Below, in pieces: positions 7,446 to 36,542 of a stretch of DNA of 64,000 nucleotides. Position 1 is the stretch's first letter. Each line of letters starts with the position of its first letter. Both the position numbers and the translations under genes were made by a program. The notes beneath the pieces were generated by a model. It had not been told where the DNA came from. It was given only the letters and a program-made list of their open reading frames with translations, and did no database searches. Source of the stretch: Clostridia bacterium. GTDB lineage: Bacteria; Bacillota; Clostridia; TANB77; CAG-465. The stretch spans positions 142-64,141 of the forward strand of contig JAQUBQ010000001.1 in assembly GCA_028686615.1 (NCBI GenBank). The letters run 5' to 3'.

Positions 7446-8849
7446 TTATTTTATATTTAATTTTATTCTATTGTATTCCCAGTTTTGAGAAACTTCAGCT
7501 TCTGATAATGCACTGCTGTATAAAGCAAAGTTATATATTGTTCCTGTGTATTTTAATCCTCTACCAAGTCTTAAATCCCCTAATGTTAAGTATTTATATT
7601 GTATTTTTTTACTTCCTGAGTTGAAGGTTTTTACTAAGCTTCCATTTAAATATACTTTTGTATCTTCCCCTCTTCTTCCTACAACTTGTATATTTAAGTA
7701 TTTGTTTTCATATTCTTGAATTGCAATACTTGCAAAGCCCTCTTCTTCGTATTCATAATCTATTTTTAAAAGAGCTCCTCCAGTTTTATAACTATATACA
7801 TGTAAATATCCATATACTATTCCAATCCAATTCAAGTAAACTGCTGATTCTTCAGATAATGCACATAATGTTGCTGGGTAATCTTCCCAACGTTCAGATA
7901 CACCTTTTTGGTTTACAGTTCCTTTAATTGTTAAGTTTATACCATATGTATCTCCTACTGGTTGCATTTCTTGATTCACAGTAATTCTTCCTACTTTTGA
8001 AGCGTTAGAAAGTTGTAATCCTCTATACATGTTATTCTCATAGGTTACATCATTATCCCCTTCCAAACTTTCCAATATTTCGAATTCTCCAAATTGAGTC
8101 AATGTTCTTGGCGAATCAAATGTAACTCCTGTCACTAAGTTATCAAGCACTAATTCAACTTCTTCATCTTGTTCTTGATATTGATTTACAAAATGAATAG
8201 GTACTTCTCCATCCATTATTCCTTGAATGCTCATAACCATACCTGAATTATAATTTACTATATATGGAGCATACTTAGCATTTATTATTCCAATGGATGA
8301 TAAATGATTTTCATCTAAGTAATGCCATCTACTTCCATAAGAAATTCCACGTATTTCTACATTATCAGGATGTGCAGTACCACCAATTTTATCTCCAACT
8401 AATGGTTTTTTTTGTTCTTTAATTTCTAAAACCTTATTTTCAATATTAAGGTTTTCTTTATTAAAGTCATACAGTTCTCTTTTAATAAGGATATATCCTA
8501 ACTTTTCAATATTTTCCTCTTTACTGGTAATATTATCATAGATATATATTAGTTTGTTGCTTAAATAAGCTACATTGTTAAATTCCTTTTCTTGTAGACT
8601 AGGAATTACTTTTTTTATTTCATCCTTTTCAATATATAGTGGATTATCCCTATCATCATTTAACAGCTTTTTAGCTTTGCTATACTCGAATTCTTCCTTA
8701 TATGTAGCAAACTCTGTCATTATTTTCGCTTTACTTGCTTTCCCTATAACTCCACTAGATTGTAAAGTCAAAATAATTGCTCCTGCTAGTATTATCATTA
8801 CTATTATTGTTATTACTAATACTACTAACGATACTCCTTTGTTTTTCAT
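7446..8849 (-). CDS. Type-IV-pilin-like N-terminal segment fused to a LamG/concanavalin-A-like lectin domain protein
   Basis: The likely start is the internal ATG at 8849 (MKNKGVSLVVLVITIIVMIILAGAIILTL), which has an AGAGGT RBS. The track ORF extends to 8879. The C-terminus reads GDLRLGRGLKYTGTIYNFALYSSALSEAEVSQNW, typical of a Laminin_G_3 domain end. Confidence 0.6.
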   Translation of the reverse strand: MKNKGVSLVVLVITIIVMIILAGAIILTLQSSGVIGKASKAKIMTEFATYKEEFEYSKAKKLLNDDRDNPLYIEKDEIKKVIPSLQEKEFNNVAYLSNKLIYIYDNITSKEENIEKLGYILIKRELYDFNKENLNIENKVLEIKEQKKPLVGDKIGGTAHPDNVEIRGISYGSRWHYLDENHLSSIGIINAKYAPYIVNYNSGMVMSIQGIMDGEVPIHFVNQYQEQDEEVELVLDNLVTGVTFDSPRTLTQFGEFEILESLEGDNDVTYENNMYRGLQLSNASKVGRITVNQEMQPVGDTYGINLTIKGTVNQKGVSERWEDYPATLCALSEESAVYLNWIGIVYGYLHVYSYKTGGALLKIDYEYEEEGFASIAIQEYENKYLNIQVVGRRGEDTKVYLNGSLVKTFNSGSKKIQYKYLTLGDLRLGRGLKYTGTIYNFALYSSALSEAEVSQNWEYNRIKLNIK

Positions 8850-8882
8850 TTTTATTACCTCTTTTTTATATGCATACATTTA

Positions 8883-10553
8883 TTATCTACTAAAGCTTCC
8901 ATCTCCTATAAATTCTCTAAGTAATGAATTAATAGGTATTTCTTTTGTTTCAACTGGTAAGAAGTTGCTTAAAAACTCATAAAGTCTTCTTGCTTCAGAG
9001 AAATATTTACTTGTATTTTTAACTTGTAATAATAATGGTTCTGCAAATGTTCTTATAACTCCCATCTCATATATTAAACTACTATTAAATATGTAATCTG
9101 CACTATCTGTAAATGGATATATATTTTTCTCTTCTCCTTTACGTATTTTTTCCCACATTTCTAATGTTTCTTCAACTTTTACACTCCTTGTTGCATAATC
9201 TCTTACTATTCTTCTAAGCATTCTAGTATCAGTAGATGAAACCTTTGTATATGAATCCAAATTTAATGTTGTAATCGGTGCCATATATATTTTAAATTTG
9301 TATTTTGCTTCTACTTGTTTTGTCATTTCATCATTTAAAGCATGAATTCCTTCAACAAGCATTATATCTTTTTTCTCTAATTTTAATTTTTTATCAGAAT
9401 ATGATTTTGAACCTTTACCAAAATCATATCTTGGAATGTTTACAGACTCTCCACTTGTAAGTTTTTTCATATGATCATTAAACAATTCTATATCTAATGA
9501 ATTCACTGACTCATAATCATATTCCCCTGTCTCTTTATTGTAATTTTCTTTTCTTTCCCTATAGTAATTATCCATTGATATTATAATTGGATTGTATCCT
9601 ATTAGTTTTAAATTATCCCCTAGTTTTTGAGCAAAGGTTGTTTTACCTGAAGAAGATGGTCCTGCAATTAGTAGCATCTTTATTTCTTCTTTTTCTTCTA
9701 TTTTTTGTGTAAGCTTTAGTATTTGTTTTTCATGCAATATTTCACTTGTACGTATAATTGTTCCTATATCTTTATTTATAACTTTATCATTTAGCTGTCT
9801 TACAGATTCAACATTTATTTTTGTATTATATTCTTCAAATTCTTCATAAATATCATATAATTTATTTTTAGTAATTTCTTTTGGCATTACATTTATATTA
9901 TCCCTGTTTGGTGCTACAAGTACAAAACCTTTTCTATATGGTTTGATATCGAATCCTTTTATAAATCCTGTCCTTGGTGCTAGAACCCCACTCATATGAT
10001 TTGCAACTGTTTCACAGAAGAATAACGTTACGTATGATTTAAGCTCACTACCCATCATATTTATATAATCTTTGTTTTGCATAGTTTCGTATATAATTTT
10101 TGCTTCCTCAGATGGAACAGCTCTTCTTACAATTTGGCTATTTCTATCAATTATATTTTGCATTTCTTCTCTAATATTATTTGCCATCTCTTCTGTAAAT
10201 GCTTCTTTACATATAAAATAGCTATCATTATTCATATTATTACTGTACTCAACTTTGTATTTAGGATATAGCTTACAAAGAGCCATATATAATATGAATC
10301 TTAGTGTTCTATTATATATCCTGTATCCATCATTACTGTTATATGTTACATGTTCAAGCTTAGTATCAGTTACAATTTCATAATCTAGTGTTCTTACTTC
10401 ATTATTCACTCTTACTGCCATAATTTCTGATATTTTACTAGGGTATTCTGCTTGTTCTATAATTTCGTCTACCTTCGTTTTATAATTTACTACAAGTTCC
10501 CTAGAACCTTCTAATGTCACTTTTATTTTTTTTGCATATAGTTTGTCTAACAT
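8883..10553 (-). CDS. Uridine-kinase/phosphoribulokinase-family P-loop kinase fused to an N-terminal ThrRS/AlaRS-like TGS/SAD domain (putative nucleoside kinase)
   Basis: Walker A LLIAGPSSSGKTTFAQKLGD followed by ISMDNYYRE is uridine-kinase-like. The N-terminal roughly 280 aa begin with a TGS-like segment (KIKVTLEGSRELVV). Confidence 0.55.
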   Translation of the reverse strand: MLDKLYAKKIKVTLEGSRELVVNYKTKVDEIIEQAEYPSKISEIMAVRVNNEVRTLDYEIVTDTKLEHVTYNSNDGYRIYNRTLRFILYMALCKLYPKYKVEYSNNMNNDSYFICKEAFTEEMANNIREEMQNIIDRNSQIVRRAVPSEEAKIIYETMQNKDYINMMGSELKSYVTLFFCETVANHMSGVLAPRTGFIKGFDIKPYRKGFVLVAPNRDNINVMPKEITKNKLYDIYEEFEEYNTKINVESVRQLNDKVINKDIGTIIRTSEILHEKQILKLTQKIEEKEEIKMLLIAGPSSSGKTTFAQKLGDNLKLIGYNPIIISMDNYYRERKENYNKETGEYDYESVNSLDIELFNDHMKKLTSGESVNIPRYDFGKGSKSYSDKKLKLEKKDIMLVEGIHALNDEMTKQVEAKYKFKIYMAPITTLNLDSYTKVSSTDTRMLRRIVRDYATRSVKVEETLEMWEKIRKGEEKNIYPFTDSADYIFNSSLIYEMGVIRTFAEPLLLQVKNTSKYFSEARRLYEFLSNFLPVETKEIPINSLLREFIGDGSFSR

Positions 10554-10738
10554 CTCTAACCTCCAACGTTTCCTCTTATTTAGTTTCCATTAATAATTCT
10601 ACATTCATGATATATTATATTCTGTAAATTGTCAATTTACTATCTTTAATAAAAAATTGTTTTTAACTCGTATTTTTAAGTAATAAAAAAGGGTATTCGA
10701 GTTTTTCTAAACTAGCAAGATTCCCCTTTTCTTTATTT

Positions 10739-11941
10739 TTACTTTATATAAGCTACAATTCGAAGTCCCTTATTATCACCCGCAACATAAGGAAGACTGT
10801 AAAGTGAGCGAGAACTTACAGGAGCGATTGAACCTCTAGAAGCATAAGCTCCGCCAAAACCGACACGTCCATTCCAACTGTAAGCCTCCATAGTCCATTC
10901 ATACACATTTCCTGCCAAATCATATATGTTTTTCTTTTGATAAGTGGCTTCTGAACCTGTTACTTTAAGTCCACCTCCACCAAGATAGTTCCCATACTCA
11001 GAACTATCTTTTACATTTATTCCACTAGCTTTATACCATCTCATTACTGCATCCCATTGCACTCCATAAATCAAATGACTTACTACTCCTCTTGTGTTTT
11101 GACTATTATCTGGATATAAGCTTCTTGCTACCTTTACTGCTCCATTTGCATTATCATCTCCTGCAAACCAATCATATGCTGTATCATCTTGTGTCCCACC
11201 CCATGGAATATAGTTCCACACAGCTATCCCTTGTCTTATTCGTGGTTTCTTTGTTCCATCTGCATCATTTATTGTTGTTTCTGTTGGTGCCTGCATCCCT
11301 TCAGCTATTCCTGCTTCATATCTTCCTATATAAAATCCTTTATACTTCTCTACACTTGCATACATCTTTTCTACTTCTCTATCTTTTCCTGTTTCAGGAG
11401 TTATTTCGTATAAATCATTTTTCGGAGCTTGATCATTCCTAAAATCATATCTTATAAATTCATTAATATTTTCTACTGGTACCCATACAAATTGATTTCC
11501 TTTCAAGCCTTCTGCTATATTATGTGATGTTCCTTGTCCCTCATCCTCGATATTATCCGATATTATTAAACCTTCTTCTACTGTTCCCCCTACATGGTAA
11601 AAGCCTTCTGGAATTATTGATTTAATATCATATACTGTCCCTTTTTCTGTTACGTTATATTCACTTTTTTTAAATCCCGCTTCACTTAATCTGTTTTCAA
11701 TATATTTTATTAAAGTTATTTCTTCTTTTTCAGCATCTGACATAAGTTCATACTCTGCTCTTGCAAGTACAGCTACTTGTTTGGCGTTTGCCTTATCGCT
11801 TTTCATTTTTGCTTCTTCTGCCCTAGCTATAATTCCACTACTATTTAATGATAATATTATTGCCCCTGCTAAGATTATCATTACTATTATTGTAATGACA
11901 AGTACTATTAATGATATTCCTTTTCTTTTATTTGTTTTCAT
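10739..11941 (-). CDS. Pilin-like N-terminal segment fused to an FGE-sulfatase (SUMF1) fold domain protein, paralog 1
   Basis: N-terminus MKTNKRKGISLIVLVITIIVMIILAGAIILSL with a GGAGGG RBS. FGE-fold motifs FYIGRYEAG, IYDLAGNVYEWT, RGS and a terminal GLRIVAYIK are present. The catalytic Cys pair is absent. Confidence 0.7.
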   Translation of the reverse strand: MKTNKRKGISLIVLVITIIVMIILAGAIILSLNSSGIIARAEEAKMKSDKANAKQVAVLARAEYELMSDAEKEEITLIKYIENRLSEAGFKKSEYNVTEKGTVYDIKSIIPEGFYHVGGTVEEGLIISDNIEDEGQGTSHNIAEGLKGNQFVWVPVENINEFIRYDFRNDQAPKNDLYEITPETGKDREVEKMYASVEKYKGFYIGRYEAGIAEGMQAPTETTINDADGTKKPRIRQGIAVWNYIPWGGTQDDTAYDWFAGDDNANGAVKVARSLYPDNSQNTRGVVSHLIYGVQWDAVMRWYKASGINVKDSSEYGNYLGGGGLKVTGSEATYQKKNIYDLAGNVYEWTMEAYSWNGRVGFGGAYASRGSIAPVSSRSLYSLPYVAGDNKGLRIVAYIK

Positions 11942-12171
11942 ATGTTTTTCCCTCCTATAATTATCTTTAATATTATTATATATTATTATTGTTTTAAAAA
12001 ACTTACTATTGCCTATTTACATCTATTTGTAATACAAATTAAATACTAATAATACATAATTGTAATATAGGCATTATGCTTTTTATATGTTTTTTTATAA
12101 CCTTGACTTGGTCTTTACTTTTTCAAGTTTTTTATGTATAATGAACTCTGCTTTAAAGGAGTGAATATTTT

Positions 12172-13266
12172 ATGAAATTAGGAATAGTAGGTCTGCCCAA
12201 TGTAGGAAAAAGCACATTATTTAATGCTATAACAAAAGCAGGTGCAGAAAGTGCTAATTACCCATTTTGCACTATTGAACCAAATGTTGGTATTGTAACA
12301 GTTCCAGATAGTAGAGTTGATAAGCTTTCTACAATGCATGAAACTCTTAAAACACTTTATGCAACAATTGAATTTGTTGATATTGCTGGACTTGTAAAAG
12401 GAGCTTCTAAAGGTGAGGGCCTTGGTAATAAGTTTTTGTCACACATTCGTGAAGTAGATGCAATAGTTCATGTTGTAAGATGTTTTGAAGATGAAAACAT
12501 AGTTCATGTAGATGGAACAATAAATCCTATTAGTGATATTGAAACAATAAATCTTGAACTTATATTTGCTGATATTGAAACAATCATTAAACGTATTGAA
12601 AGGGTATCGAAACAGACTAAGTCTGGTGATAAAAAAGCAGTTGCAGAATTAAATTTATTACAAAAAGTTAAACTACAATTAGAAAACGGGATACCTGCTA
12701 GAAGTATTGATTTAACAGCTGAAGAAAATGATATATTAAAAGATTCTTTTTTACTTACTTCTAAAAAAATGCTTTATGTTGCAAATGTGAATGAGGAACA
12801 ACTTACTGATTTAGATAATGATAAAAATGTCAAAATTGTAAAAGATCTTGCAAGCAAAGAAAAAACTGTTTGTATTCCATTGTGTGCAAAACTTGAAGAA
12901 GATCTTTCAGAGCTCGATAATGATGATAGATTATTACTTATGAACGATTACGGACTAGCTACTTCAGGTCTTGATGAACTTGCTAAACAAAGCTATGCTA
13001 TCTTAAACCTTATCTCATACCTTACTGCTGGCAAACAAGAAGTAAGAGCTTGGACTATAACAAAAGGAACAAAGGCACCAGGTGCAGCTGGAAAAATCCA
13101 CACTGATTTTGAAAGAGGATTTATAAAAGCAGAAGTTATTAACTATGACGAATTAATGAATGTAGGGTCTATGAATGCTGCAAAAGAAAAAGGATTAATA
13201 CGTTTAGAAGGAAAAGAATATGAAGTTAAAGATGGTGATATAATTTTATTTAAATTTAATGTCTAA
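12172..13266 (+). CDS. ychF: Ribosome-binding ATPase YchF (Obg family)
   Basis: [22 protein letters not shown]1 motif, 364 aa, with a C-terminal TGS domain. A rho-independent terminator follows. Confidence 0.95.
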
Positions 13267-13324
13267 GAAGGATAAACTCCTTCTTCTTATATTTAATCCA
13301 AACAACTTAATAAATTAATAAAAT

Positions 13325-13405: not shown

Positions 13406-14620
13406 TTATTTTATATATGCTATAATTCTAAATCCAATAGTGCCATGTTCAAGTGAAGGAGAATATGCATGACGAGCAGATACTGCACCATCAATACTAC
13501 TGCTTACACAACCTCCTCCGCGAACAGCACGAGTATAAATATCCTTCGTCTCCATTGTCCATTCTTCTATATTTCCTGCCAAATCATATATGTTCTTCTT
13601 TTGATAAGTTTCTTCTGATCCTGTTACTTTTAATCCTGGTCCTCCAGCATAATTTCCCATTCCTGTGCTATCTTGCACATTTATTCCACATTCTTTATAC
13701 CATCTCATTATTGCATCCCAATTTACTCCATATATTAATGTAGATACTACTCCTGTTGTATTTGTGCTATCATCTGGATACATGCTTCTTGCTGCTTTTA
13801 CTGCCCCATTTGAGTTATCATTTCCTGGTCCTCCTTCATATGATGATGTATTACTAAATGTTCCTCCCCACGCAATATAGTTCCATACATATAGCCCCCT
13901 TTTTATTCTCGGAATGTTTTGTCCATTTGCCAAGGATGTTGTTGAAGCTGTTGGCTTTGTCATTCCATCTGCTATTCCTGCTTCATATCTTCCTACATAA
14001 AACCCATTATGCTTTTTTATACTTGCATACATTTTGTCTATTTCTTTTGTTCTACCTTTTACTGATCCAATTTCAAAGTATTTACCTGTTCCTCTTGATG
14101 TTGCTGTAAATTGTGCTATTATTAAATGAAAATCATATCTTACAAATTCACTAAATTTTTCTACTGGTACCCATACAAACTGATTTCCCTGTAATGTTGT
14201 TAAATGAGATGTTCCTTTCCCCTCATCATATATGTTATCTGATATTACTAACCCTTCATCAACTGTACCTCCAACATGGTAAAAACCTTTTGGAATTACA
14301 GGTATTGTATATACCTTTCCTGTTTCAGTTATTTCATATTTACCTTCTTTTATTCCAACTTCTTTTAATTTGTCCTCTGCATGTTTCTTAAATGTTTTAC
14401 CTTCCTTCTCTTCATCTGATAATAAATTATATTCTGCTCTTGCTAATGTTACGACTTGTTGTACATTTGCTTTATTAACATTTTTTACTGCTGTATTTGC
14501 ATTTTCTATAACATTGCTACTGCTTAATGATAATATTATTGTTCCTGCTAGTATTATCATTACTATTATTGTGATGACAAGTACTATTAAGCTTATTCCT
14601 TGTTTGCCTTTTGCTTCCAT
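13406..14620 (-). CDS. Pilin-like N-terminal segment fused to an FGE-sulfatase fold domain protein, paralog 2
   Basis: N-terminus MEAKGKQGISLIVLVITIIVMIILAGTIILSL. Motifs FYVGRYEAG, IYDLAGNIEEWT, RGGGC and a terminal GFRIIAYIK are present. It is similar along its whole length to paralogs 1 and 3. Confidence 0.7.
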   Translation of the reverse strand: MEAKGKQGISLIVLVITIIVMIILAGTIILSLSSSNVIENANTAVKNVNKANVQQVVTLARAEYNLLSDEEKEGKTFKKHAEDKLKEVGIKEGKYEITETGKVYTIPVIPKGFYHVGGTVDEGLVISDNIYDEGKGTSHLTTLQGNQFVWVPVEKFSEFVRYDFHLIIAQFTATSRGTGKYFEIGSVKGRTKEIDKMYASIKKHNGFYVGRYEAGIADGMTKPTASTTSLANGQNIPRIKRGLYVWNYIAWGGTFSNTSSYEGGPGNDNSNGAVKAARSMYPDDSTNTTGVVSTLIYGVNWDAIMRWYKECGINVQDSTGMGNYAGGPGLKVTGSEETYQKKNIYDLAGNIEEWTMETKDIYTRAVRGGGCVSSSIDGAVSARHAYSPSLEHGTIGFRIIAYIK

Positions 14621-17323: not shown

Positions 17324-18514
17324 TTATTTTATATATGCCACAATACGGAAACCTATTCCTTTATTTTCATTTGCATTAGCACCTCCATAGCGACGAATAC
17401 TTATTGGTATTTCAGAACCCCTGTAATAAAAATCTCCTCCTCGCCAAACGCGGTTACTATTATTGTATGCTTCCATTGTCAATTCCTGCACATTTCCCGC
17501 TAAATCATATATGTTTTTCTTTTGATAATTTGGCTTTAATCCTGTTTTTTCTAAATATCCTGTGAAATGGTTTCCATATGTTGAACTATCTTTCACATTT
17601 ATTCCACTATTTTTATACCATCTCATTATTGCATCCCATTGCACTCCATATATTAAATGACTAACTACTCCTTTTTTATTTTCAGCATTATCTGGATACA
17701 TACTTCTAGCTACTTTTACTGCTCCATTCTCATTATCATTTCCTAGATACCAATCATATAATGAAGATCCACTTCCTCCCCATCTAATATAATTCCATAC
17801 ATATATGTTTTGTTTGATTTGTGGACGCTTAGTTCCATCTGCTAATTCTACCGTTGAACTTGTTGGTTCTCCCATTCCTTCTGCTACTCCTGCTTCATAC
17901 CTTCCTACGTAAAATCCTTTATACTCGTTTACACTTGCATACATCTTTTCTACTTCCCTGTTTTTTCCAACTTCAGGTATTATTTCGTTATATATTGAAT
18001 CTATTGTTGTATCATTATTAAAATCATATCTTATAAATTCACTAAAATTTTCTACAGGTACCCATACAAATTGATTGCCTTGTAATACCGTTTCATGTAA
18101 TGTTCCTTGTCCTTCATCCTCTATATTATCCGATATTACTAAACCTTCTTCTACTGTTCCCCCTACATGGTAAAAGCCTTCTGGGATTATTGATTTAATA
18201 TTATATACTGTCCCTTTTTCTGTTACATTATATTCACTTTCTTTAAATCCTGCTTCCTTTAGCTTATCTTCAACATGTTTTCTTAAAGTTACTCCTTCTT
18301 TTTCAACATCTGACATGAGTTCATATTCTGCATTTGCTAACATTGTTACTTGTTTTGCATTTGATATGTTACTCTTTGTTGTTGCTTCATTTGTTTTGTC
18401 TACAATATTACTACTATTTAATGATAATATTATTGCTCCTGCTAGTATTATCATTACTATTATTGTAATGACTAGTACTATTAAAGATATCCCTTTTCTT
18501 TTATTTGTTATCAT
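17324..18514 (-). CDS. Pilin-like N-terminal segment fused to an FGE-sulfatase fold domain protein, paralog 3
   Basis: N-terminus MITNKRKGISLIVLVITIIVMIILAGAIILSL. Motifs FYVGRYEAG, IYDLAGNVQELT, RGGDFYYRGS and a terminal GFRIVAYIK are present. Confidence 0.7.
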   Translation of the reverse strand: MITNKRKGISLIVLVITIIVMIILAGAIILSLNSSNIVDKTNEATTKSNISNAKQVTMLANAEYELMSDVEKEGVTLRKHVEDKLKEAGFKESEYNVTEKGTVYNIKSIIPEGFYHVGGTVEEGLVISDNIEDEGQGTLHETVLQGNQFVWVPVENFSEFIRYDFNNDTTIDSIYNEIIPEVGKNREVEKMYASVNEYKGFYVGRYEAGVAEGMGEPTSSTVELADGTKRPQIKQNIYVWNYIRWGGSGSSLYDWYLGNDNENGAVKVARSMYPDNAENKKGVVSHLIYGVQWDAIMRWYKNSGINVKDSSTYGNHFTGYLEKTGLKPNYQKKNIYDLAGNVQELTMEAYNNSNRVWRGGDFYYRGSEIPISIRRYGGANANENKGIGFRIVAYIK

Positions 18515-18557: not shown

Positions 18558-19781
18558 TTATTTTTGAAGTTTGTTATAAATATAATTTGTATCACCTAAC
18601 ATTTTTTTCATACTGTTATATTCTGCTGTAGAATATGTTGTTATTCCTTTTTCATATTCATATATTTCTTTTTCTAATGGTAATACCCTAAATCTACTTT
18701 TACCATTTACCCTCTTTAACTCTGTGTATATTGGAGTCACTTTATTATCTGCTATCTTTTTCTCGTCTCCTTTTTTAGAAACCGTAACTGTAGCTATCCC
18801 TCCCAATTTTGTATAATAATCTACTTGGTTCGATACAAAATTCCCAAGGGAATATACAACATATGCTTGTTTTTTCAAGCCATTTTCAAGTTCAACTTCT
18901 TTAATTTCATATGGTTGAGGTACATGTGGGTGTGAACCAAAAACAATATCTACTCCATTGTTTACTAAAAAATCAACCAATTCTTCTTGTGTTTTATTTT
19001 GAGTTGTTTGATATTCTTGTCCAAAATGCATAGAAAAGATTATAAAGTCTGTTTTTTGTTCTTTCATATAATTAATATCTTCTAGCATTGCATCTTTATC
19101 AATTATATTTACACAGTAAGGTGCCGATTTTGGAATAGGTATTCCATTTGTCCCATATGTATATGATGCTATTCCAACTTTAATATTGTTTTTCTCTATT
19201 ATCAATGGTTTCGTATCGTCTGTAAGATATGTTCCCACAACTTTAAGTTCTTTTGATTCTGCATTTTTTATTGTTTCTTGCAATCCCTTTAATCCTTTAT
19301 CAAGTGCATGATTGTTTGCAGTAGAAACTACTTCTACTCCCATATTTTTAACACCATCTAAAAGCTCAACTGGGCTATTAAAATTAGGGTAATTTGATGG
19401 AGGAAACATATTTCCTGCAACAGGAACTTCAAGATTAATCATTGATAAATCTGATTCTTCAAAAACATATTTTATTTTTTCAAATACTGGATCAAAATTA
19501 TATGTGCCATCATTACTTTTTACTGATTTAAAAACAGTATCATGTATCAGTAGATCTCCTCCAGCACTAATTTTAAGAGTATATTCTTCTGCTTCCTTTG
19601 GTTTTAATTCTTCCTTATCATTTTCTTTTGATGTCTCATTATATGGCGTTACCTTCTTATTCTCTTTACTACTAAAATATTTGTATCCATATACAGTGGT
19701 TGTTAACAAGGCTATGATAAATATAACTGATAGTATAAGTTTAGAATAATTTACTTTATACCTTTTTACCTTTCTCCTCAT
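18558..19781 (-). CDS. CapA-family (poly-gamma-glutamate capsule biosynthesis-like) metallophosphoesterase-fold protein, membrane anchored
   Basis: TANNHALDKG and GSHPHVPQPYE motifs, with an N-terminal TM segment. 407 aa. Confidence 0.7.
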   Translation of the reverse strand: MRRKVKRYKVNYSKLILSVIFIIALLTTTVYGYKYFSSKENKKVTPYNETSKENDKEELKPKEAEEYTLKISAGGDLLIHDTVFKSVKSNDGTYNFDPVFEKIKYVFEESDLSMINLEVPVAGNMFPPSNYPNFNSPVELLDGVKNMGVEVVSTANNHALDKGLKGLQETIKNAESKELKVVGTYLTDDTKPLIIEKNNIKVGIASYTYGTNGIPIPKSAPYCVNIIDKDAMLEDINYMKEQKTDFIIFSMHFGQEYQTTQNKTQEELVDFLVNNGVDIVFGSHPHVPQPYEIKEVELENGLKKQAYVVYSLGNFVSNQVDYYTKLGGIATVTVSKKGDEKKIADNKVTPIYTELKRVNGKSRFRVLPLEKEIYEYEKGITTYSTAEYNSMKKMLGDTNYIYNKLQK

Positions 19782-21940: not shown

Positions 21941-22936
21941 GTGTTTAAATTGTTTTATTCTAATAAAAAAAATATTATTAAAAGAATTGTTGGTTTATTT
22001 ATTTGCCTAACTTTCTTTACTGCCCCTATAATGTCATTAATCTTTGCAAATACAGAAGTTAAAAATTACAAACCAATTTACGGGACATTAACAGCAAATG
22101 TTAATTTTAGAGAGGCCCCTGCACTCAATTCTAAAAAAATATCTGTTCTTAAAAAAGGTGAGGGTATTAAAATGCTTGGAGAATCCGGTAAATTTTATAT
22201 TGTTCAACTTGGATCAAATCAAGTAGGATATGTTTCCAAAAGTTATGTGAAATTCACGAAATCTCCTCCTTCAGGTGCTAAAGTATATCAATCATTAGCT
22301 CCTAAAATGTTAACAGTAAATGCAAATGGTGTAAATTTAAGACGTGGTCCTGGAACAAATTTTTCTAGAATTAGTAGTCTTTCTAAGGGTACTTCTGTAA
22401 AAGTCATTGGAATCATTGGAGAATTTTATCTAGTAATATTAAAAGATTATACTGTGGGAATGATGCACAAGGATTATGTATCTGCTACTACAAACTCTAC
22501 TACAAATTCTGTTAGTACAGCTGAAAAAAATATTAAAGCAAGCCCCACTACAAATCTCTCTAAAGAAGAGTATCTTTTAAAACTTATAAATGATTACCGT
22601 GCAAAAAATGGTGTAAAACCACTTTCATTTGGAGTTACTTTAAATAAAATATCAAAAATGAAATCAGACGATATGGTCCAAAATGATTATTTTTCTCACA
22701 CTTCCCCAAAATATGGTACTCCGTTTGAAATGATGAAAAATAATGGTCTAAATTATAAAAGTGCTGGTGAAAACATAGCTGGTAATCCTAGTTTAGATAA
22801 AGCTATGGATTCTTGGATAAATTCTGAAGGGCACAGAAAGAACATACTTTCCTCATCCTTCAATTATATTGGTATTGGTATTACTGAAAGTCCAAAGTAT
22901 GGCAATGTTATTGTTACTATGTTTGCCGGAATATAA
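21941..22936 (+). CDS. Secreted protein with two SH3b domains and a C-terminal CAP/SCP/PR-1 (YkwD-like) domain
   Basis: Signal/TM segment at the N-terminus. The SH3b-like repeat VNFREAPALNSKKISVLKKGEGIKM occurs twice. The CAP domain reads FSHTSPKYGTPFEMMKNNGLNYKSAGENIA...GHRKNIL. Confidence 0.75.
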   Translation: MFKLFYSNKKNIIKRIVGLFICLTFFTAPIMSLIFANTEVKNYKPIYGTLTANVNFREAPALNSKKISVLKKGEGIKMLGESGKFYIVQLGSNQVGYVSKSYVKFTKSPPSGAKVYQSLAPKMLTVNANGVNLRRGPGTNFSRISSLSKGTSVKVIGIIGEFYLVILKDYTVGMMHKDYVSATTNSTTNSVSTAEKNIKASPTTNLSKEEYLLKLINDYRAKNGVKPLSFGVTLNKISKMKSDDMVQNDYFSHTSPKYGTPFEMMKNNGLNYKSAGENIAGNPSLDKAMDSWINSEGHRKNILSSSFNYIGIGITESPKYGNVIVTMFAGI

Positions 22937-23008: not shown

Positions 23009-25439
23009 TTATCCTCCAGAGCTAGGCATCTTCCACACATTTGTAAAATCCCATCCTGCATTTGTATATGTCTCATGTTGCTTTGCTTGTGCCTCTGTTA
23101 TTGTTGTTCCATCTTTACCATTTTGAGTTGTTTGAGCATTTATAAATGTTGTAGTTCCTGTAGCCGTTGGGCTTGAAAAATATTGCATAGTTCCTAAACC
23201 GTAATTATTATTTGGTGCTCCAAAATTATTTCCTGATATTCTTCCAAAATATGTGCTTGATGTCCCTGTTTGTCTTGTGATTTTTGTATTTAATCCAAAA
23301 CAGTAGCTAACATCTTGCTTATACATATGAATATATGAAATTATGCCTCCTGCTGACCACTTACTAAGAACTTCTCCTGCTGCGTAACACTTTGTAGGAG
23401 AACCATCACCTACTAGTCCACCTCCAGAATCTGTTGCATGAACATTTGCCTTTGAATAGCAATTTCTTAGTATTCCTGTAATATATCCGTCCTAGTCCTC
23501 CACATTCATAACCAGTAACTTTACCCTCTGTATAGCATTCTTCGATAACAGCCTTGTCGGTTTGGTAATTTGAATTTGCATATCCTACTAAAATTCCTGA
23601 TGTTCCGTAATCTATTGCATTAACTTCACCACTTACGCTTGTTCTTTGAATTTTAGTTTCATATGTGTTTCCAGCTAATCCCCCAACGGTACCCTTTGCA
23701 GTAACTTTAACGTTTTCCATTCTTATGTTTTTAAGTGTAGCTTCATATGTTAAACCAAAAAGGCCTATATTATATTCTTCTGGTCTATTAATATTCAAAT
23801 TAGTTATTTTATATCCTGCTCCATCATAAACCCCTGTAAATTTTTCTGTGCTGTCGCCAATTGGAAGCCATCCTGCTCCACTTGAATAGTTTGTTAAATC
23901 TATATTAGCCGTTTGTTTATAATTTTTATTTAGTCCATATCTTATATAATTTAATTCTTCTGCATTAGAAATTAAATATGGATCATTTATTGTTCCTTTT
24001 CCTTTTATATTAAAGCTTTCCATACCTTTAACTGGTAAGAATGTTGGATATGTTGATCCATTTGCTATATTCCATATATTTTCAAAATCCCAACCTATAG
24101 AAGAAAATGTTTCTTTTTGTTTACATGCTTCAAGTGATATATTTAATCCATCTTTTCCTGATAATGTTTTATTTTGGTTTGGAAAGTCTGTTGTCCCTTG
24201 AGAACTTCCTTGTTTAAACAACATTTCCTGATTTGCATATATTCCGCTTTTTTGTGATTGATATTCTTCACCCTCTTCACATAAAACTCTACTTACGTTA
24301 TTATCACTACCTTCACTTCTTGTAATACTATCATTTAATGCAAAAACATTTCTTATTTGTGTTCCCTCTCCAGTTATTCCTACTATTCCTGCAACATAAC
24401 TTTTCCCTTTTATACTAGATGTAGAATAGCTGTTTTTTAGTGAACCAAAGTCATATCCTGAAAAAGATCCTGCTATTCCCCCCACGTAATTTAGTCCATT
24501 TACGCTTCCAGCTGAATAACAATTATCAATAGCAACGTTGTATCCAACACCTATTATTCCTCCTACATTTTGGTTTCCCGTTATATTTCCTGTAGAAGAA
24601 CTATTTATTATAGATATTTCAGAATTACCAGCTATTGCTCCAACATAATTTTTTCCTATAATTTTAGCATTTTCTATTATTACATTTTTTATTTTTTTAT
24701 TTTTATTATAATCATCTTCATAACAATAACCAAATAACCCTTGATAATCTGAATTTGGCCTATTAATTGTTAAATTAATAATTTTATTCCTTCCTCCATC
24801 GTAATTTCCCTTAAATGGATTATTGTAATTGGTTCCTATAGGTTCCCAGCCTTCACCCGAAGAATAAGAACTTAAATCTATATCTGCCACTTGTATGTAT
24901 GACCCGTTTAAATCATTTCTTACATTATATAAATCTTCTGCCGTAACTATTGTGTAAGGATTTGATAAGGTTCCATCACCGCTTTCAGGAATACTATTAG
25001 GTTTGTCCTTTGTTAAAGATATAGGATTTTTCATATAGTAAACATTTCCTGTTTTATCACTATAAATATAATAATCATCTTCACCATTTATTCCTTTACC
25101 CTTTTCCACATTAGATTTTATTAGATTCATATCTAATTTATAAAACTTACCTATTAAACCTCCTACATCTGTTATTATTGTATCCCTTAACGTTGTATTA
25201 CTTAAAATGTCTTGAGTAGACACTTCTGATAAATATGGTTTTACATCTGTTCCCATATTTTCTGCGAAGTATAATTCTACTGCTTTTGATATGTTTCGAG
25301 AATCACTTCTCTCAACTGCTAATTTTGCTTTTCCTATTATATTACTACCTGATAGAGTTAGTATTATAGTAGTTGCTAAAACTATAATTACAATTATAGT
25401 TATAACTAAAACAATTAAACTTATTCCTTTGTTTTTCAT
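23009..25439 (-). pseudogene. Pilin-like N-terminal segment fused to a GLUG-motif repeat surface protein, interrupted by a +1 frameshift near 23480-23500
   Basis: N-terminus MKNKGISLIVLVITIIVIIVLATTIILTL. Many GG(L/I)(A/I/V)G repeats (VGGLIG, VGGIIG, VGGIAG, VGGLAG). Downstream of the frameshift, ORF 23009..23326 carries AGWDFTNVWKM, which parallels IGWDFENIWNI inside the main ORF. The shifted frame continues with NCYSKANVHATDSGGGLVGDG. Confidence 0.65.
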
Positions 25440-31637: not shown

Positions 31638-31910
31638 ATGTATCGTATAAATACTTTTAAAGCATTAGTCTTAGGTAAAATTTCTCGGAAAAGAAATGGT
31701 TCTTTAGTTCTTCATGCAGCGTTGTATGAAACAAATAAAAAAATAGTCATAGATCTAACAGATTATTTATTTGATACTTTTGGTCGTACTAAATTTACTA
31801 ATTTTGAATTAGAGCAAATATCTGCAGCTATTCCTAATACATTAAAAGTTTCGAATTACGGTAGCATTTGGCTACCAACCTCCTTTATCATCAAAGGTGT
31901 ATGCTTTTGA
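31638..31910 (+). CDS. Hypothetical 90-aa protein
   Basis: Perfect -35/-10 promoter, a good RBS, and a rho-independent terminator immediately downstream (31933-31956). No recognisable family. Confidence 0.6.
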   Translation: MYRINTFKALVLGKISRKRNGSLVLHAALYETNKKIVIDLTDYLFDTFGRTKFTNFELEQISAAIPNTLKVSNYGSIWLPTSFIIKGVCF

Positions 31911-31932
31911 TGAAAATAATATTTTTTGGCAA

Positions 31933-31956
31933 GGGCGTATGGGTTTCCATACGCTC
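31933..31956 (+). terminator. Rho-independent terminator
   Basis: GGGCGTATGG, loop GTTT, CCATACGCTC, followed by TTGTACATTTGTTTTT. Confidence 0.7.
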
Positions 31957-31970
31957 TTGTACATTTGTTT

Positions 31971-33011
31971 TTATACTACATTATATTCTACTGCTCTTAT
32001 AATTCTATTTATAATGCTAATCCCAAGACCTTTTTCTTCTATGCCTTCTACAATATAATATGTTGCATCTTCTTTATCGATTTTTCGTAATAAATGAAAA
32101 ATGTTCCTTGATATTTCTTTTAAATCGTTTTTACTTCCCATATTAAATATTTTATTTATATTAGAATAATTATTATACTTAGCTGTCTCTATACTTTCCC
32201 TACTAGCAAGAATAATTATTTTTTCATCTTTTTTTGTTTTAATTTCTTTAATTACTTTTTCGATTATATCTTTATCTTTCTCCCATTTTATTAATACTCC
32301 TGGAATACTAGGTGCATAATGTTTGTATTTCATTCCCGGTGAAGATACAGTTTCAATTTGAGATACCTTTTTAAATATCTTTTCATCATATTTAACATTT
32401 GAGCATATCTTAGATATATCTTCTATGGTTATACTTCCTGGCCTTAAAATTATTACTTCATTTTCTTTTACTGTTACAACAGTAGATTCTATTCCATAAT
32501 TTGAACAGCCACCATCTATTGCATATAGTTGTTTATCTTTAAATTCTTCTTCTATATCTTCAAGTCTTGTACCACTTGGCTTTCCTGATATATTTGCACT
32601 AGGAGCTGCGATTGGTACTCCCGCTGTAGATATAAGTTCTATTGCAACTTTACTCTCTGGCATTCTTATTCCTATCGTATCTAATCCTGCTGTAACTTCA
32701 TATGGTACTTCTTGCTTCTTTTTTAAAACTATTGTAAAAGGACCTGGCCAAAATGCATCCATAAGTTTTTCTTCTAATTTAGAATAACTCTTAACTAATT
32801 TATTTAGCATACTTTTACTTGATATATGTACAATCAGCGGATTATCTTTGGCTCTTTCTTTTATTTTAAATATTTTACTTACAGCTACCTTATCAAGTGC
32901 ATTTGCTCCTATTCCATAAACAGTTTCTGTTGGAAATACAACTATATCTCCTTTTTTGATTAGTTCTGCTGCATAATGTATATTTTCACTATTATTAATT
33001 AATTTATTCAT
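31971..33011 (-). CDS. tsaC: L-threonylcarbamoyladenylate synthase (Sua5/YwlC/TsaC family, with the C-terminal Sua5 domain)
   Basis: VFPTETVYGIGANALD YrdC-domain motif. At 346 aa it fits the long Sua5-type form. Confidence 0.85.
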   Translation of the reverse strand: MNKLINNSENIHYAAELIKKGDIVVFPTETVYGIGANALDKVAVSKIFKIKERAKDNPLIVHISSKSMLNKLVKSYSKLEEKLMDAFWPGPFTIVLKKKQEVPYEVTAGLDTIGIRMPESKVAIELISTAGVPIAAPSANISGKPSGTRLEDIEEEFKDKQLYAIDGGCSNYGIESTVVTVKENEVIILRPGSITIEDISKICSNVKYDEKIFKKVSQIETVSSPGMKYKHYAPSIPGVLIKWEKDKDIIEKVIKEIKTKKDEKIIILASRESIETAKYNNYSNINKIFNMGSKNDLKEISRNIFHLLRKIDKEDATYYIVEGIEEKGLGISIINRIIRAVEYNVV

Positions 33012-33072
33012 TCTTTATCTCCATCAAACAAAAACCACATAAATGTATGCTTCATTTATGTAGTTCTAACAT

Positions 33073-34402
33073 CTATTTTAATTTTATTATAATATCTTTA
33101 ATTATTCCTGTTTCTTGTTCCCCTGTCTCCATGTTCTTAATTGTTAAAGTGTTTGTTTTTATTTCGTCTTCACCTATAAATATTACGTAAGGGATTTTAA
33201 GTTTGTTAGCGTAGTTTAGCATACTCTTAGTTGTTTTTCTGTTATAACAAACTTCTGCATTTATTCCTTCACTTCTAAGGTCACTAGCAATTTTAAATGC
33301 AAAACTTAAATCTTCTATCATAGGTACTATTAAAACCTTTGCTGTTGAAGCCGCTTTTGTTGATATAACATTATTCATTTTTAAATATGTGAACAACCTT
33401 GATAAACCTATAGAGATTCCCACTCCTGGAAGTTTCTTGTTTGTATAATATTCTGCTAAATTATCATATCTTCCTCCCGAACAAATGCTTCCAAGTTCTG
33501 GGTAATCCATAAGTACTGTTTCATATACTGTTCCTGTATAATAATCTAAACCTCTTGCTATTTTTAGATCTATCATGTAGTTTTGTTCTGGAACATTAAA
33601 AGCTTTTACAGCATTAGTTACTTGCTCTAATTCTAATATTCCTTCATTAAACATTTTAGAATTAATATTAAAGTTTTTTAGTTTTATAATTGTCTCTTCA
33701 TTATTTCCTTTAATATTAATAAATTTTAATATTTCATTTGCTTTTTCATCTGATATTTGTATTTCTTTAAGCAACTCCCTAGTAGCATCTTCTCCTATTT
33801 TTTCATATTTGTCTATTAACCTTAGTATTTCTGTTATTTTATCTGTTAATTCTAAATAATCAAAAAAACCATTTAATATTTTTCTATTATTAATTCTAAT
33901 TAGAAATCTTTCAAATCCAAGGTCTTTAAATGTTGTATATATTATTGATGGTATTTCCGCATCATTTAATATATTTAATTCTCCATCACCAATAATATCA
34001 ATATCACATTGATAAAATTCACGGTATCTTCCTTTTTGCGGTCTTTCTCCCCTATATACCTTTCCCATTTGATACCTTCTAAATGGAAATGTTAAACTTC
34101 CATAATTTATCGCCACATATTTTGCCAAAGGAACTGTTAAATCAAATCTCATTGACATATCAGTATCCCCTTTTGTAAATCTATATATTTGTTTTTCTGT
34201 TTCCCCTCCGTGCTTTAGCAAGAAGTACTTCAGATGCTTCTAAAACTGGTGTATCAAGAGGTATAAATCCAAATTTTTCATATGACTTTCTAACACTATC
34301 ATACATTTTATTAAATAATATTTGTTCATCTGGTAATAATTCTAAAAAACCAGGTAAAGTTCTTGCTTTTATTTTTTCTATCTTTTGCATAACATTACTC
34401 AT
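33073..34402 (-). pseudogene. Histidyl-tRNA synthetase-like gene (HisS/HisZ family), split by a frameshift near 34181-34221
   Basis: N-terminal 73-aa ORF ([40 protein letters not shown]) plus a 382-aa ORF. The 382-aa ORF has motif 2 (GERPQKGRYREFYQCDIDIIG), SGGRYDNL, and an anticodon-binding-like C-terminus. RFDLT replaces the canonical RPEGT and is closer to HisZ. Confidence 0.6.
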
Positions 34403-34511
34403 CTCCTATTGCCTTTTATTCTTTGTAATATATTATCATATAACTTAGATAAAATCTAGATTATTTAAAAAGAAAATAAGAGGCATAAATATATACCCCT
34501 TATTTACTATA

Positions 34512-34988
34512 TTAATCTATTCTTGTTACTTCAAGAATTTCTACTCTCTCACCATTAAAAAAAATTACTTCTCCTACTTTTTTACCTAATATTTTAATAA
34601 CTATAGGTGCTTCTACTCCAAGTGCAAAATCATTATATCCTCTTTGATTCATACCATGAATTTCATATTTTTCTGTGGTTCCACCAAAATCTAAAACAAC
34701 ACTTGTACCTATTATTACTGTCAATCCATCATGATTTTTGTAAAAGTCTTCATCTTCAACTTTCACGAAATTTCTTAGCTTTCCATCAATTTTAGATATT
34801 TCATTCGGAATATCATAGTTGATTTTTTTTAATAACATAATACAATTTTCTTCCTTTATATCCTCTTTACTTATAGAGTTTCTTTCCACCAGTAATTTTC
34901 TTTGCTCTTCCTTAAGAAGCTTCTTTTTCTCCTCTAAAAAAAGAATATCCTTTGATGTTAAATATACCTCTTTAGTCCGTATTGACAT
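34512..34988 (-). CDS. GreA/GreB-family transcription elongation factor
   Basis: N-terminal coiled-coil, then a C-terminal FKBP-like domain (GKKVGEVIFFNGERVEILEV). 158 aa. Confidence 0.6.
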   Translation of the reverse strand: MSIRTKEVYLTSKDILFLEEKKKLLKEEQRKLLVERNSISKEDIKEENCIMLLKKINYDIPNEISKIDGKLRNFVKVEDEDFYKNHDGLTVIIGTSVVLDFGGTTEKYEIHGMNQRGYNDFALGVEAPIVIKILGKKVGEVIFFNGERVEILEVTRID

Positions 34989-35180
34989 TGAATTATCCTC
35001 CTTGATGTTATTAATTTAATACTCTCCTTTTTTGGCTATTATCCTCCTTTAATGAAATTAATATTATTAAATACTAAACATATATTATATGTTGCTCTAC
35101 TATTCTACCTTTGTATACATAAAAAGTCAAGTACTATGTAGCACTTGACTTTTATATAATGTTTTTTATCTTTATTCTCT

Positions 35181-36542
35181 TTAGTAGCCTGTTAACTCCA
35201 GCAACGGATATATATGATGATAAGCAAATCCAAAATCCGAATTAAGTCCATTATCTTTATTAAATATATTTAATTTTTTTTCCACATCTTTTAACATACT
35301 TGTTATATATGGATATGTATACTCATAATCTTCTGCTATATATGTAGGAACTAAGTCTGGTCTATTTATTTTAGCCTCTGCTTCTGCTTCAAATACACTT
35401 AAATCAACACCCACTATATAATCCTTTTTATATTTTTCTAATCTTTCTAGTACTGATTCTGTAAGAGTTATAGTTGTTCCATCACCAAAGGTATACTTTC
35501 CTTTATTGTCTAAGCTTAAAAAAATGTTGTTTGCGTTTGTTGTATAATCCATAAATGTAATTTCATCTGCTAATTTTATTACTTCCTCTGCTATATTTTT
35601 TTCTACTCCATCATGTATAGCTGTATATCTATCCCACCAAACAGGAATATCATATCCAATAGTAATGTTTTTACCTTTAGAATAATTATATACTTCTGTT
35701 ATAAAGTCTAAATAACTAGTTCTACAAATGTTACTTTTTGCTGCATCACCTTGACCATCCACCCATTGTGAATTTGCATATGGTTCAACATCATAATGTA
35801 TTCCTCTTATCTTAGAATCGTAACTCGCATTTTCATTATACTCTGTAATTGCATCAATTATTGAATTAACCGAAGAAGGACGTATTTCTTCAAATACAAA
35901 TTGTGGATCCCCATATAATGCATATACGTACATATCTCTCTTATATGCCTCTTTGATAAAATTAGTATATCTATCGGTCTTATCTATATCTATAGGAATA
36001 TATATAATATTTACATTTAATTCCTTTAACTTATCTAAAACTCTTTTGGTTTCCAATGGATTATCTACATATTTAATTTCTTCTGGAATAGTAGAATTAC
36101 ACCAAAACCAAACAGCTATTACTTTTTTTATATCTTCTAATTCATTTTTTTCTATTTCAATAACAGTATTTAGTTTTTTAGAAAAAATATAACTTTTTTT
36201 AGGATCAGTTTTAATATTTAATTTATCTGTTTCTATTTTATAAAAAAAATCTAAAGGTGATAAATTAGTTCCAATTTTACTTTCAATATATGTTTTTAGA
36301 TTACCAGAAAAAGGACTAGCAAAAGGTGTAGACCTTATACAATTTTCTTCTGTGGTAATCTTGCTATAATTAAGAGCCTCATGTATTGTTGATTCATTAT
36401 TTAGTCTTACTGAATCTGATGTTTTATTAATTAAATCATTATTTGTAATTGATAATATTATCGCTGATGCTAAAATTATCATAATTATTATTGTAATAAG
36501 TAATACTATTAATGATATTCCCTTTATTTTATTTGTTTCCAT
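35181..36542 (-). CDS. Pilin-like N-terminal segment fused to a putative glycoside-hydrolase-like TIM-barrel domain protein
   Basis: N-terminus METNKIKGISLIVLLITIIIMIILASAIILSI. The C-terminal roughly 350 aa contain hydrolase-like segments (IAVWFWCN, IGYDIPVWWD). The family assignment is uncertain. It lies 36 nt downstream of the NRPS-coupled kinase. Confidence 0.45.
   Translation of the reverse strand: METNKIKGISLIVLLITIIIMIILASAIILSITNNDLINKTSDSVRLNNESTIHEALNYSKITTEENCIRSTPFASPFSGNLKTYIESKIGTNLSPLDFFYKIETDKLNIKTDPKKSYIFSKKLNTVIEIEKNELEDIKKVIAVWFWCNSTIPEEIKYVDNPLETKRVLDKLKELNVNIIYIPIDIDKTDRYTNFIKEAYKRDMYVYALYGDPQFVFEEIRPSSVNSIIDAITEYNENASYDSKIRGIHYDVEPYANSQWVDGQGDAAKSNICRTSYLDFITEVYNYSKGKNITIGYDIPVWWDRYTAIHDGVEKNIAEEVIKLADEITFMDYTTNANNIFLSLDNKGKYTFGDGTTITLTESVLERLEKYKKDYIVGVDLSVFEAEAEAKINRPDLVPTYIAEDYEYTYPYITSMLKDVEKKLNIFNKDNGLNSDFGFAYHHIYPLLELTGY

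Follow-up and report, generated by a model that had tools for sequence, protein, structure and literature searches.

Six proteins of an uncultured Clostridia bacterium probably reuse the N-terminus of a Glu5-less, lineage-specific type IV pilin

Introduction

The stretch of DNA analysed here, 64,000 nucleotides of contig JAQUBQ010000001.1 (assembly GCA_028686615.1, forward strand positions 142 to 64,141) and hereafter called the window, is a chromosomal segment of 27% GC from the metagenome-assembled genome (MAG) of an uncultured member of the Clostridia. It contains sporulation and housekeeping genes, encoding SpoIVA, YqfD, YabP/YabQ, Era, RecO, GlyRS and YchF, together with six genes on the minus strand, named here for their ends at 8849, 11941, 14620, 18514, 25439 and 36542, whose products begin with nearly the same residues and continue into different domains. 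What keeps a single N-terminus so constant on proteins that otherwise differ? The first-pass annotation of the window, made from the sequence alone, read the shared block as a class III (prepilin) signal in which the glutamate at position +5 (Glu5) is replaced, and proposed a dedicated recognition, processing or assembly step, with the archaeal bindosome as its analogue, rather than an ordinary membrane anchor.

Type IV pilins are found by the N_methyl/Glu5 motif at their N-termini, and a clade that had dropped Glu5, from its major pilin included, would escape annotation. Docking of the subunits is normally driven by a salt bridge in which Glu5 takes part (PMC10191384). The prepilin peptidase PilD is recognised by two conserved aspartates needed for proteolysis and by four cysteines in its methylase domain (PMC10191384). 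Modular pilins, in which a functional domain follows a pilin stem, are established in Streptococcus sanguinis, where PilB carries a von Willebrand factor A (vWA) domain and PilC a concanavalin A (ConA)-like lectin (Raynaud et al. 2021 PMC8179133; Shahin et al. 2023 PMC9934059); such proteins are already known to carry GLUG as well as ConA-like lectin modules (PMC8179133, PMC9934059).

Here, we describe a computational analysis of the six window genes, of the family to which their leaders belong, and of the pilus clusters of related genomes. The block is homologous to pilin N-termini, is used by the major pilin of relatives, and is spread over unrelated modules. We conclude that the six genes probably encode modular pilin-like proteins built on the class III signal and alpha1-N helix of a lineage-specific type IV pilin without Glu5. 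The pilus and peptidase genes are located in relatives whose housekeeping proteins are 42-62% identical to those of the window, not in this MAG.

Results

Six window genes share one N-terminal block

All six genes are present on the minus strand as described, and the near-invariance of the block holds up on alignment: the six N-termini share 16 invariant columns and follow the pattern M-x(2-6)-[KQ]-G-[IV]-S-L-[IV]-V-L-[VL]-I-T-I-I-[VI]-[MI]-I-[IV]-L-A-x-x-I-I-L-[ST]-[LI], after which a polar helical segment begins. Each protein has a short, mostly basic n-region that ends in Gly at -1 (6/6), and the hydrophobic stretch directly after the predicted cleavage site is 24 residues long. The replacement of Glu at +5 by Val is likewise borne out in 6/6. 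The individual leaders are MKNK-G-VSLVVLVITIIVMIILAGAIILTL in g8849 (8763..8849; n-region, Gly-1 and hydrophobic alpha1-N, in that order), MKTNKRK-G-ISLIVLVITIIVMIILAGAIILSL in g11941 (11846..11941), MEAKGKQ-G-ISLIVLVITIIVMIILAGTIILSL in g14620 (14525..14620), MITNKRK-G-ISLIVLVITIIVMIILAGAIILSL in g18514 (18419..18514), MKNK-G-ISLIVLVITIIVIIVLATTIILTL in g25439 (25353..25439) and METNKIK-G-ISLIVLLITIIIMIILASAIILSI in g36542 (36447..36542), all on the minus strand. The open reading frame (ORF) of g8849 extends to 8879; the start that aligns with the other five is the ATG at 8849, which has a good AAGAGG ribosome-binding site.

The codons of the six leaders vary at synonymous sites, including switches between TCN and AGY serine codons, and the DNA upstream of the six genes is unrelated; thus, the identity of the leaders is held by selection on the protein and not by recent gene conversion. 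A degenerate DNA pattern for the core of the block found four of the six copies in the window, and 0.00 across 100 shuffles. Past residue 45, only g11941, g14620 and g18514 are related (57-68% identity), all other pairs giving E > 0.7. The other exported or anchored proteins of the window carry ordinary, dissimilar signals; these are a PGA_cap protein (18558-19781), an SH3/CAP protein (21941-22936) and a DUF3048 protein (50704-51762). The leader exists in two interchangeable forms, GISLIVLVITIIVMIILAG with Val at +5 (the window form) and GITLIALVITIIVLLILAG with Ala at +5 (the sister form), which swap on orthologous proteins of the formylglycine-generating enzyme (FGE) type. A literal literature search for the leader peptide returned no match.

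The block is the N-terminus of the major pilin in related genomes

Relatives of the MAG possess a type IV pilus cluster in the order pilMN, pilO, a gene of ~130 aa, pilin, pilD', two minor pilins, pilB, pilT and pilC, and it is the pilin gene of this cluster that bears the leader. The window form occurs in five independent clusters, where it begins pilins of 106-137 aa (MKK-GISLIVLVITIIV) encoded directly upstream of pilD' (PF06750). These clusters lie in L217, whose pilin P0205 (127 aa, MKK-GISLIVLVITIIVMIIIAGAIIISLNSSNIIDRANDAV) sits just upstream of pilD', in L219/L220 (GCA_017474105.1), in L224 (GCA_045652705.1), in L225/L226 (GCA_017536445.1) and in L227-229. Minor pilin genes follow pilD', and the four clusters that extend that far continue with two T2SSE ATPases and a platform gene, which Pfam marks as T2SSF in three of these clusters. 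Over the first 30 mature residues, the window proteins agree with the five cluster pilins at 18-27 positions (19-23 for g8849, 23-27 for g11941), while the YqfD, YbeY, DAGK and GlyRS proteins encoded by these genomes show no more than 42-62% identity to those of the window.

The sister form, GITL[IV]ALV, fills the major-pilin slot in 69 of 69 metagenome loci that include upstream DNA, and in several GTDB loci as well. These loci were obtained by searching metagenomes with an alignment of PilD', the slot being a gene 63-331 bp upstream that encodes a mature protein of 42-192 aa. Position +5 of the 69 pilins is Ala (67), Thr or Ser, and never Glu. Since the same N-terminus is found on the major pilins of relatives and on the window proteins, the block can be read as the signal and polymerisation helix of the clade's major pilin, reused on unrelated modules. 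The proposal of a class III signal with Glu5 replaced is thereby supported, the same N-terminus standing on major pilins encoded beside pilD', pilB, pilT and pilC; the proposed pilus-type recognition, processing or assembly step, as opposed to an ordinary anchor, is favoured by the same comparative evidence, cleavage itself being predicted.

The clusters were found by tblastn and Pfam. Walker A scans (G[PS]TGSGK[ST]T and a looser form) over ~1 Mb of leader loci gave no ATPase, a false negative, the Walker A motif of PilB in this lineage being AAPTG[AE]GKTT. As the first-pass annotation had noted, the window itself contains no peptidase, ATPase or platform gene: Pfam scans of 36 window ORFs, the six leader genes included, found none, nor did tblastn of the whole window with the lineage's PilMN, PilO, PilD', PilB and A24 proteins. 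The MAG's own pilD' was sought through four PilD' homologs (P0388, P0399, P0462 and P0477), none of which could be traced to the MAG; their records belong to the other MAGs GCA_045652705.1, GCA_017474105.1 and GCA_017536445.1, and P0477 occurs on metagenome contigs only.

The major-pilin slot itself varies in size. Many clusters have a mini-pilin of 62-72 mature residues that is essentially the alpha1 helix alone (L006:4041-4259, L020:6628-6852, L044:4271-4489, L058:648-872 and many of L147-L215), and other clusters have pilins of 120-190 aa. Immediately downstream of pilD', the minor pilin gene of 53 out of 54 loci encodes Asp at +5 (KG[IF]TG[IV]DL...; L137-L216, e.g. L044:5395-5808). An Asp5 minor pilin beside a major pilin with Ala or Val at +5 turns the canonical arrangement around, in which the cap subunit alone is without the acidic residue.

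The leader belongs to a large and dispersed family

A profile built from the six leaders matched 19,766 of 1.84 billion representative proteins at E <= 1e-3 and 1,769 at E <= 1e-10. The first-pass annotation had held that presence on hundreds of proteins would mark the leader as a generic signal anchor of the lineage; the numbers are of that order and beyond (19,766 clusters), but the leader is not a generic anchor, the other signals in the window being unrelated to it. With its position left free, Gly precedes the hydrophobic run in 139 of the 139 top profile matches, whereas the n-region of homologs ranges from 3 to ~40 residues. Ser at +2, Leu at +3, Val at +5, Thr at +9 and Ala at +17 are invariant in the top 141 new profile matches; across the leader family +2 is Ser or Thr, and +5 is Val or Ala in homologs. 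A subfamily with Ala rather than Gly at -1 also exists (P0036, P0044, P0053 and similar proteins; L224:15754-16668), with starts such as MEKKN-AISLIVLV and MRKNKK-AVSLVVLV.

The protein encoded by g11941 has more than 5,500 homologs of the same architecture, and at least five further copies of this type are assigned to the same MAG. The parts of the MAG that were read hold at least ten leader proteins, namely the six of the window and at least four FGE-type paralogs on other contigs; two of these contigs, L123 and L124, contribute only further FGE-type leader genes. A scan with the DNA pattern over one genome per species returned at least 118 stretches, and the 80 listed all fall in assemblies of uncultured Clostridia, mostly MAGs, from gut, rumen and other metagenomes. 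A phage origin of the leader was considered and set aside, only 12 matches being found in 2.9 million viral contigs. Most leader genes do not adjoin a pilus cluster and are scattered among housekeeping genes. In one metagenome contig (L120:1657-3889), a leader gene and a PemK-type toxin gene are present that are missing from the syntenic L121, a difference that indicates gain or loss of leader genes at the strain level.

Most of the 141 leader proteins have no Pfam domain. Those domains that are found comprise LRR_5/BspA, FGE-sulfatase, GLUG, LRR_8, RCC1, dockerin, EF-hand, DUF285 and Big_6, and the partner modules among them (LRR_5/BspA, FGE, GLUG, RCC1, dockerin, Big_6) are adhesin-like.

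C-terminal modules of the window proteins

The claim that the C-terminal modules are unrelated holds outside the three FGE-like paralogs, and of the folds proposed for them the FGE and GLUG assignments are borne out, while the LamG match falls below threshold. The best defined is the 400-aa product of g11941 (10739..11941, minus strand), a leader followed by a module of FGE/C-type-lectin fold, which was confirmed by an AlphaFold model (96 homologs, pLDDT 91.9) and by Foldseek. The model has a helix at residues 9-34, a kink at SSG, a second helix at 37-66, two short helices and a domain from ~100 to 400. This domain matches formylglycine-generating enzymes, PvdO and PorK, and also the C-type-lectin-fold variable proteins TvpA, TaqVP and Mtd; on the model, it is probably a binding module. 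The N-terminal part of the model is a long helix with a kink, and no pilin beta-sheet is present. A stem of helices only nevertheless fits the lineage, because the major-pilin slot of many clusters holds the 62-72 aa all-helical mini-pilin, and may be the norm there. The resemblance to TvpA, TaqVP and Mtd also led us to consider, and to reject, a diversity-generating retroelement target. No template repeat was found in the window, the 3' ends of g11941, g14620 and g18514 match only each other within it, and the Pfam scans, which covered 36 ORFs of the window and left aside others that are mostly housekeeping genes, showed no reverse transcriptase.

The two paralogs of g11941 that also encode a leader and an FGE-like module are g14620 (13406..14620, minus strand; 404 aa, 57% identity) and g18514 (17324..18514, minus strand; 396 aa, 68% identity). 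The longest of the six, g25439 (23406..25439, minus strand; 677 aa), carries a GLUG-motif module (Pfam Glug, 38.2 bits versus a threshold of 20.5) with a weak M26 N-terminal-like match. In g8849 (7446..8849, minus strand; 467 aa) the C-terminal module is weakly LamG-like, Laminin_G_3 scoring 24.4 bits against a Pfam threshold of 27.6 (E = 3.6e-5). The 453-aa product of g36542 (35181..36542, minus strand) ends in a region for which the first-pass annotation had proposed a fold like that of TIM-barrel hydrolases; this region has no Pfam, NCBIfam or PDB match, and its single-sequence AlphaFold model (pLDDT 39) is unusable.

A nearly identical contig, JAQWFI010000008.1 of GCA_028704485.1, differs from the window at only two bases over 13 kb. 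One of the two is position 14044, which is C in the window and A in that contig; the change creates a stop that splits g14620 into genes of 192 and 208 aa. This difference is either strain variation or an assembly error.

Pilin models recognise the sister form in part

The consensus of the sister form passes the Pfam N_methyl model, at 22.9 bits versus a threshold of 21.2, in register and aligned over positions 1-26 of 27. Real sister-form proteins score 15.3-20.5 bits (17-20.5 for pilins), in register and under the threshold of 21.2, and NCBIfam gives weak in-register matches to PpdD, GspG, PilA and ComGE. The window form obtains only matches to signal-anchor models of the FliL and TrbI type in NCBIfam, and no pilin model. 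Against the PDB, the leader profile gave nothing significant: a designed membrane protein ranked first, and the in-register match to the MshA pilin had E = 0.35.

The prepilin peptidase appears to be divided between two genes

The PilD' protein of the clusters has an N-terminal zinc-finger/methylase-type domain (PF06750, E = 8e-31) and no PF01478 (L044:4576-5388). Two CxxC motifs are present in 116 of 116 homologs, and GxGD in 1 of the 116 (set P0382-P0501). A standalone protein of 250 aa shows the complementary arrangement: it has PF01478 only, and GxGDxK is present in all 120 homologs and CxxC in none (set P0262-P0381), the top 120 being at least 70% identical. Its gene lies in a conserved yqeG-A24-pepP-efp arrangement (e.g. 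L014:4685-5437, L106:6176-6922), and leader genes are found less than 9 kb from such an A24 peptidase gene (PF01478, GxGDxK) in L014, L106 and L120. Because PilD' has CxxC without GxGD and the A24 protein has GxGDxK without CxxC, the two activities of PilD, as far as motifs can tell, appear to be split between two genes.

The PilD' proteins of the GISLIVLV lineage (L217:2158-2970, L219:10001-10801, P0382) differ in their C-terminal half, which is not a polytopic peptidase domain and resembles a fused minor pilin with Asp at +5 (...KAG-AINVDIVIAVIVF... and ...KAG-AINVDIVIAV...).

Other features of the window

The region at 128-4927 contains a type I restriction-modification module, with HsdS at 1195-2400 and HsdM at 2384-3907, and has an integrase on either side of it: a tyrosine integrase at 128-1129, and another that is broken into two ORFs, 4234-4563 and 4538-4927. 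The specificity of this locus may be subject to shuffling or phase variation. A nonribosomal peptide synthetase (NRPS) of 2,394 aa is encoded at 36579-45494, with two modules and a terminal reductase domain (Condensation, AMP-binding, PP-binding, NAD_binding_4), and adjoins a seven-transmembrane PAS-domain histidine kinase, directly upstream of g36542. An agr-like quorum-sensing set occupies 54774-57732 and consists of a LytTR response regulator (54774-55448), a GHKL histidine kinase (55476-56831) and AgrB (57118-57732). Histidyl-tRNA synthetase (33073-34402) is read as two overlapping ORFs, 34181-34402 and 33073-34221, which suggests a frameshift or sequencing error. The window's synteny of a histidine kinase-response regulator pair followed by YabP-YqfD-YbeY-DAGK recurs in L225/L226; the pil cluster comes after DAGK there and not in the window.

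Discussion

In all likelihood the six window proteins are adhesin-like surface proteins fused to a pilin N-terminus, and members of a very large family that escapes standard pilin detectors. Each would consist of a minimal helical pilin stem onto which a ligand-binding or adhesin-type module has been grafted, of FGE/C-type-lectin fold, LamG-like, GLUG or, in one case, unknown. The precursor would insert into the membrane with its N-terminus inside, and a prepilin peptidase of the A24 family would cut after the invariant Gly and so trim off the short basic n-region. Through its hydrophobic helix, which is the same as in the major pilin, the protein would then be handled by the machine of PilB, PilC, PilMNO and PilT and presented at the pilus tip, along the filament or on a short pseudopilus.

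Several observations weigh against this account. Glu5 is absent, being Val in the six window proteins and Val or Ala in homologs. The window proteins have no match to Pfam N_methyl (PF07963) or TIGR02532, even for the leader alone at E <= 10. The model of g11941 has only helices (to residue 87) and no pilin beta-sheet between leader and FGE domain. The cluster-encoded PilD' is without the catalytic GxGD motif, and the standalone A24 protein would have to be present in the same genomes. Finally, no pilus gene lies near any of the six window genes: in relatives, the pil cluster takes up the interval that separates DAGK from GlyRS, downstream of the histidine kinase-response regulator pair and the YabP-YqfD-YbeY-DAGK block, and at the syntenic site (31-52 kb) the window holds FtsH, the NRPS, the histidine kinase and g36542 instead.

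Some of these points would suit a pilin-type signal that serves surface display only, in which the proteins are cut by the A24 peptidase and remain anchored by the helix, or form short stubs, and never enter a long pilus, much as archaeal sugar-binding proteins and the bindosome. The lack of Glu5, the many copies among housekeeping genes far from pilus genes, the size of the proteins' modules (400-680 aa) and the missing beta-sheet in g11941 agree with it, as does the position of the A24 gene in a housekeeping operon, its product at least 70% identical across 120 homologs as expected of a general processing enzyme. However, the major pilin of the lineage is itself Glu5-less and has the same helix, so that a missing Glu5 cannot exclude the window proteins from a filament, and known modular pilins with bulky modules assemble at pilus tips (PMC8179133, PMC9934059). 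We regard display without a pilus as unlikely, though the strongest of the alternatives. Much less credible is an ordinary uncleaved signal anchor, which would make these type II membrane proteins whose exon-like block was spread by duplication or domain shuffling and is kept for a non-pilus interaction in the membrane. The signal-anchor matches of the window form in NCBIfam, unaccompanied by any pilin model, and the non-significant match to MshA as the best natural PDB entry speak for it; against it, the boundary Gly is invariant while the n-region varies freely in length, the same sequence occupies the major-pilin slot of five window-form and 69 sister-form clusters, and the codons differ at synonymous sites while other anchors in the window are not conserved. 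The least credible of all is a Sec signal peptide that signal peptidase I would remove, the LAGA motif being one conceivable site. An AXA-like A-G-A is present at +17 to +19 in four of the six window proteins, but the motif varies (AGT, ATT and ASA in the window; AAA, ATA and AGV in homologs), and the 24-residue hydrophobic stretch runs past it, unlike a c-region; we rejected this site because the motif is not conserved.

We therefore return to a modular pilin-like protein as the reading that best describes the six genes. To judge from their sequences, the window proteins lie outside the current motif definition of type IV pilins and very probably work like modular pilins all the same. A broader picture, more speculative and for now the less likely option, is that of a large clade of uncultured low-GC Clostridia with a Glu5-less pilus, a standalone A24 peptidase in a housekeeping operon and a protease-dead, methylase-type PilD' in the pil cluster, in which the pilus serves as a general platform that displays dozens of interchangeable modules per genome (adhesin, lectin or LRR), their genes spread over the chromosome and their products joined to the helix of the major pilin. 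If true, this platform would be a bacterial counterpart of the archaeal surface proteome carried on class III signals, and largely invisible to current pilin models.

The lineage shows that an entire clade can do without Glu5, in its major pilin too, and thereby escape annotation. Pfam and NCBIfam leave all six window proteins as "hypothetical", although ~20,000 clusters match the leader profile, which would be many times the modular-pilin census of 2021. The sampled relatives are never-cultured Clostridia of gut, rumen and digester, for which surface adhesins are a likely interface with host, diet particles and partner cells, and a usable leader profile would list adhesin repertoires directly from metagenomes. 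Additionally, a pilus without the salt bridge between Glu5 and the N-terminus bears on open questions of pilin docking and methylation (PMC10191384), and so do the methylase-type and protease-type halves of PilD in separate genes.

The archaeal bindosome, offered initially as the analogue, is less apt than bacterial modular pilins (PMC8179133, PMC9934059). Archaeal class III-signal proteins (pilins, archaellins, the sugar-binding proteins of Sulfolobus and the bindosome; PMC3047682; Szabo et al. 2007 via PMC10191384) resemble the present system in having no Glu5 requirement, in placing the signal on many non-pilin surface proteins, and in a candidate peptidase without a methylase domain. They differ in that the relatives studied here have a bacterial cluster of the type IVa pilus (T4aP) kind with PilMNO and PilT, which retains a separate protein with the methylase-type N-domain, and the modules here are lectin-, LRR- (leucine-rich repeat) or GLUG-like, unlike the ABC-transporter solute-binding proteins of the bindosome, which depend on a Bas-type assembly system. 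A pilus cluster described from TANB77 (Kim et al. 2024, PMC11680825) likewise involves pilin-like proteins, in gut Clostridia that are uncultured, low in GC and reduced in genome size. That cluster, however, is of the Tad/T4c type (CpaB, TadZ/CpaE, CpaF, TadB/C), with pilin-like proteins of 143-236 aa that have no recognisable motif, whereas the cluster in the relatives is of the T4a type (PilMN, PilO, PilB, PilT, PilC).

Minor pilins without Glu5, such as GspK/PilK-type caps and S. sanguinis PilA, also have a degenerate class III signal that escapes prediction (PMC9934059, PMC10191384). There, a single cap subunit per filament is affected and the major pilin keeps Glu5; here, the major pilin and the whole repertoire are Glu5-less, and Asp at +5 is found only on the minor pilin after pilD'. 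The modular pilins remain the closest relatives in kind. Like the window proteins, they begin with a class III signal and a pilin stem, behind which stands a functional module foreign to pilus biology; the kinds of module recur as well (a lectin of ConA/LamG type, and the GLUG/M26 architecture listed as IPR012902-IPR011493 in PMC8179133), as does a monoderm T4aP-type machine with PilMNO and PilT, known here from relatives. Yet modular pilins are defined by IPR012902/N_methyl, and PilC of S. sanguinis has Glu5, whereas the window proteins carry Val at +5 and do not match the motif; the cases known so far amount to a few genes within the pil locus, whereas six lie here in 64 kb among housekeeping genes; the leader profile matches 19,766 clusters, as against ~1,200 proteins in the 2021 census; and the stem, on the model of g11941, apparently consists of helices only. 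What distinguishes this system from known pilins is thus a major pilin and repertoire without Glu5, a window form on which the curated motif models fail, a large and dispersed set of genes, and a peptidase that is apparently split.

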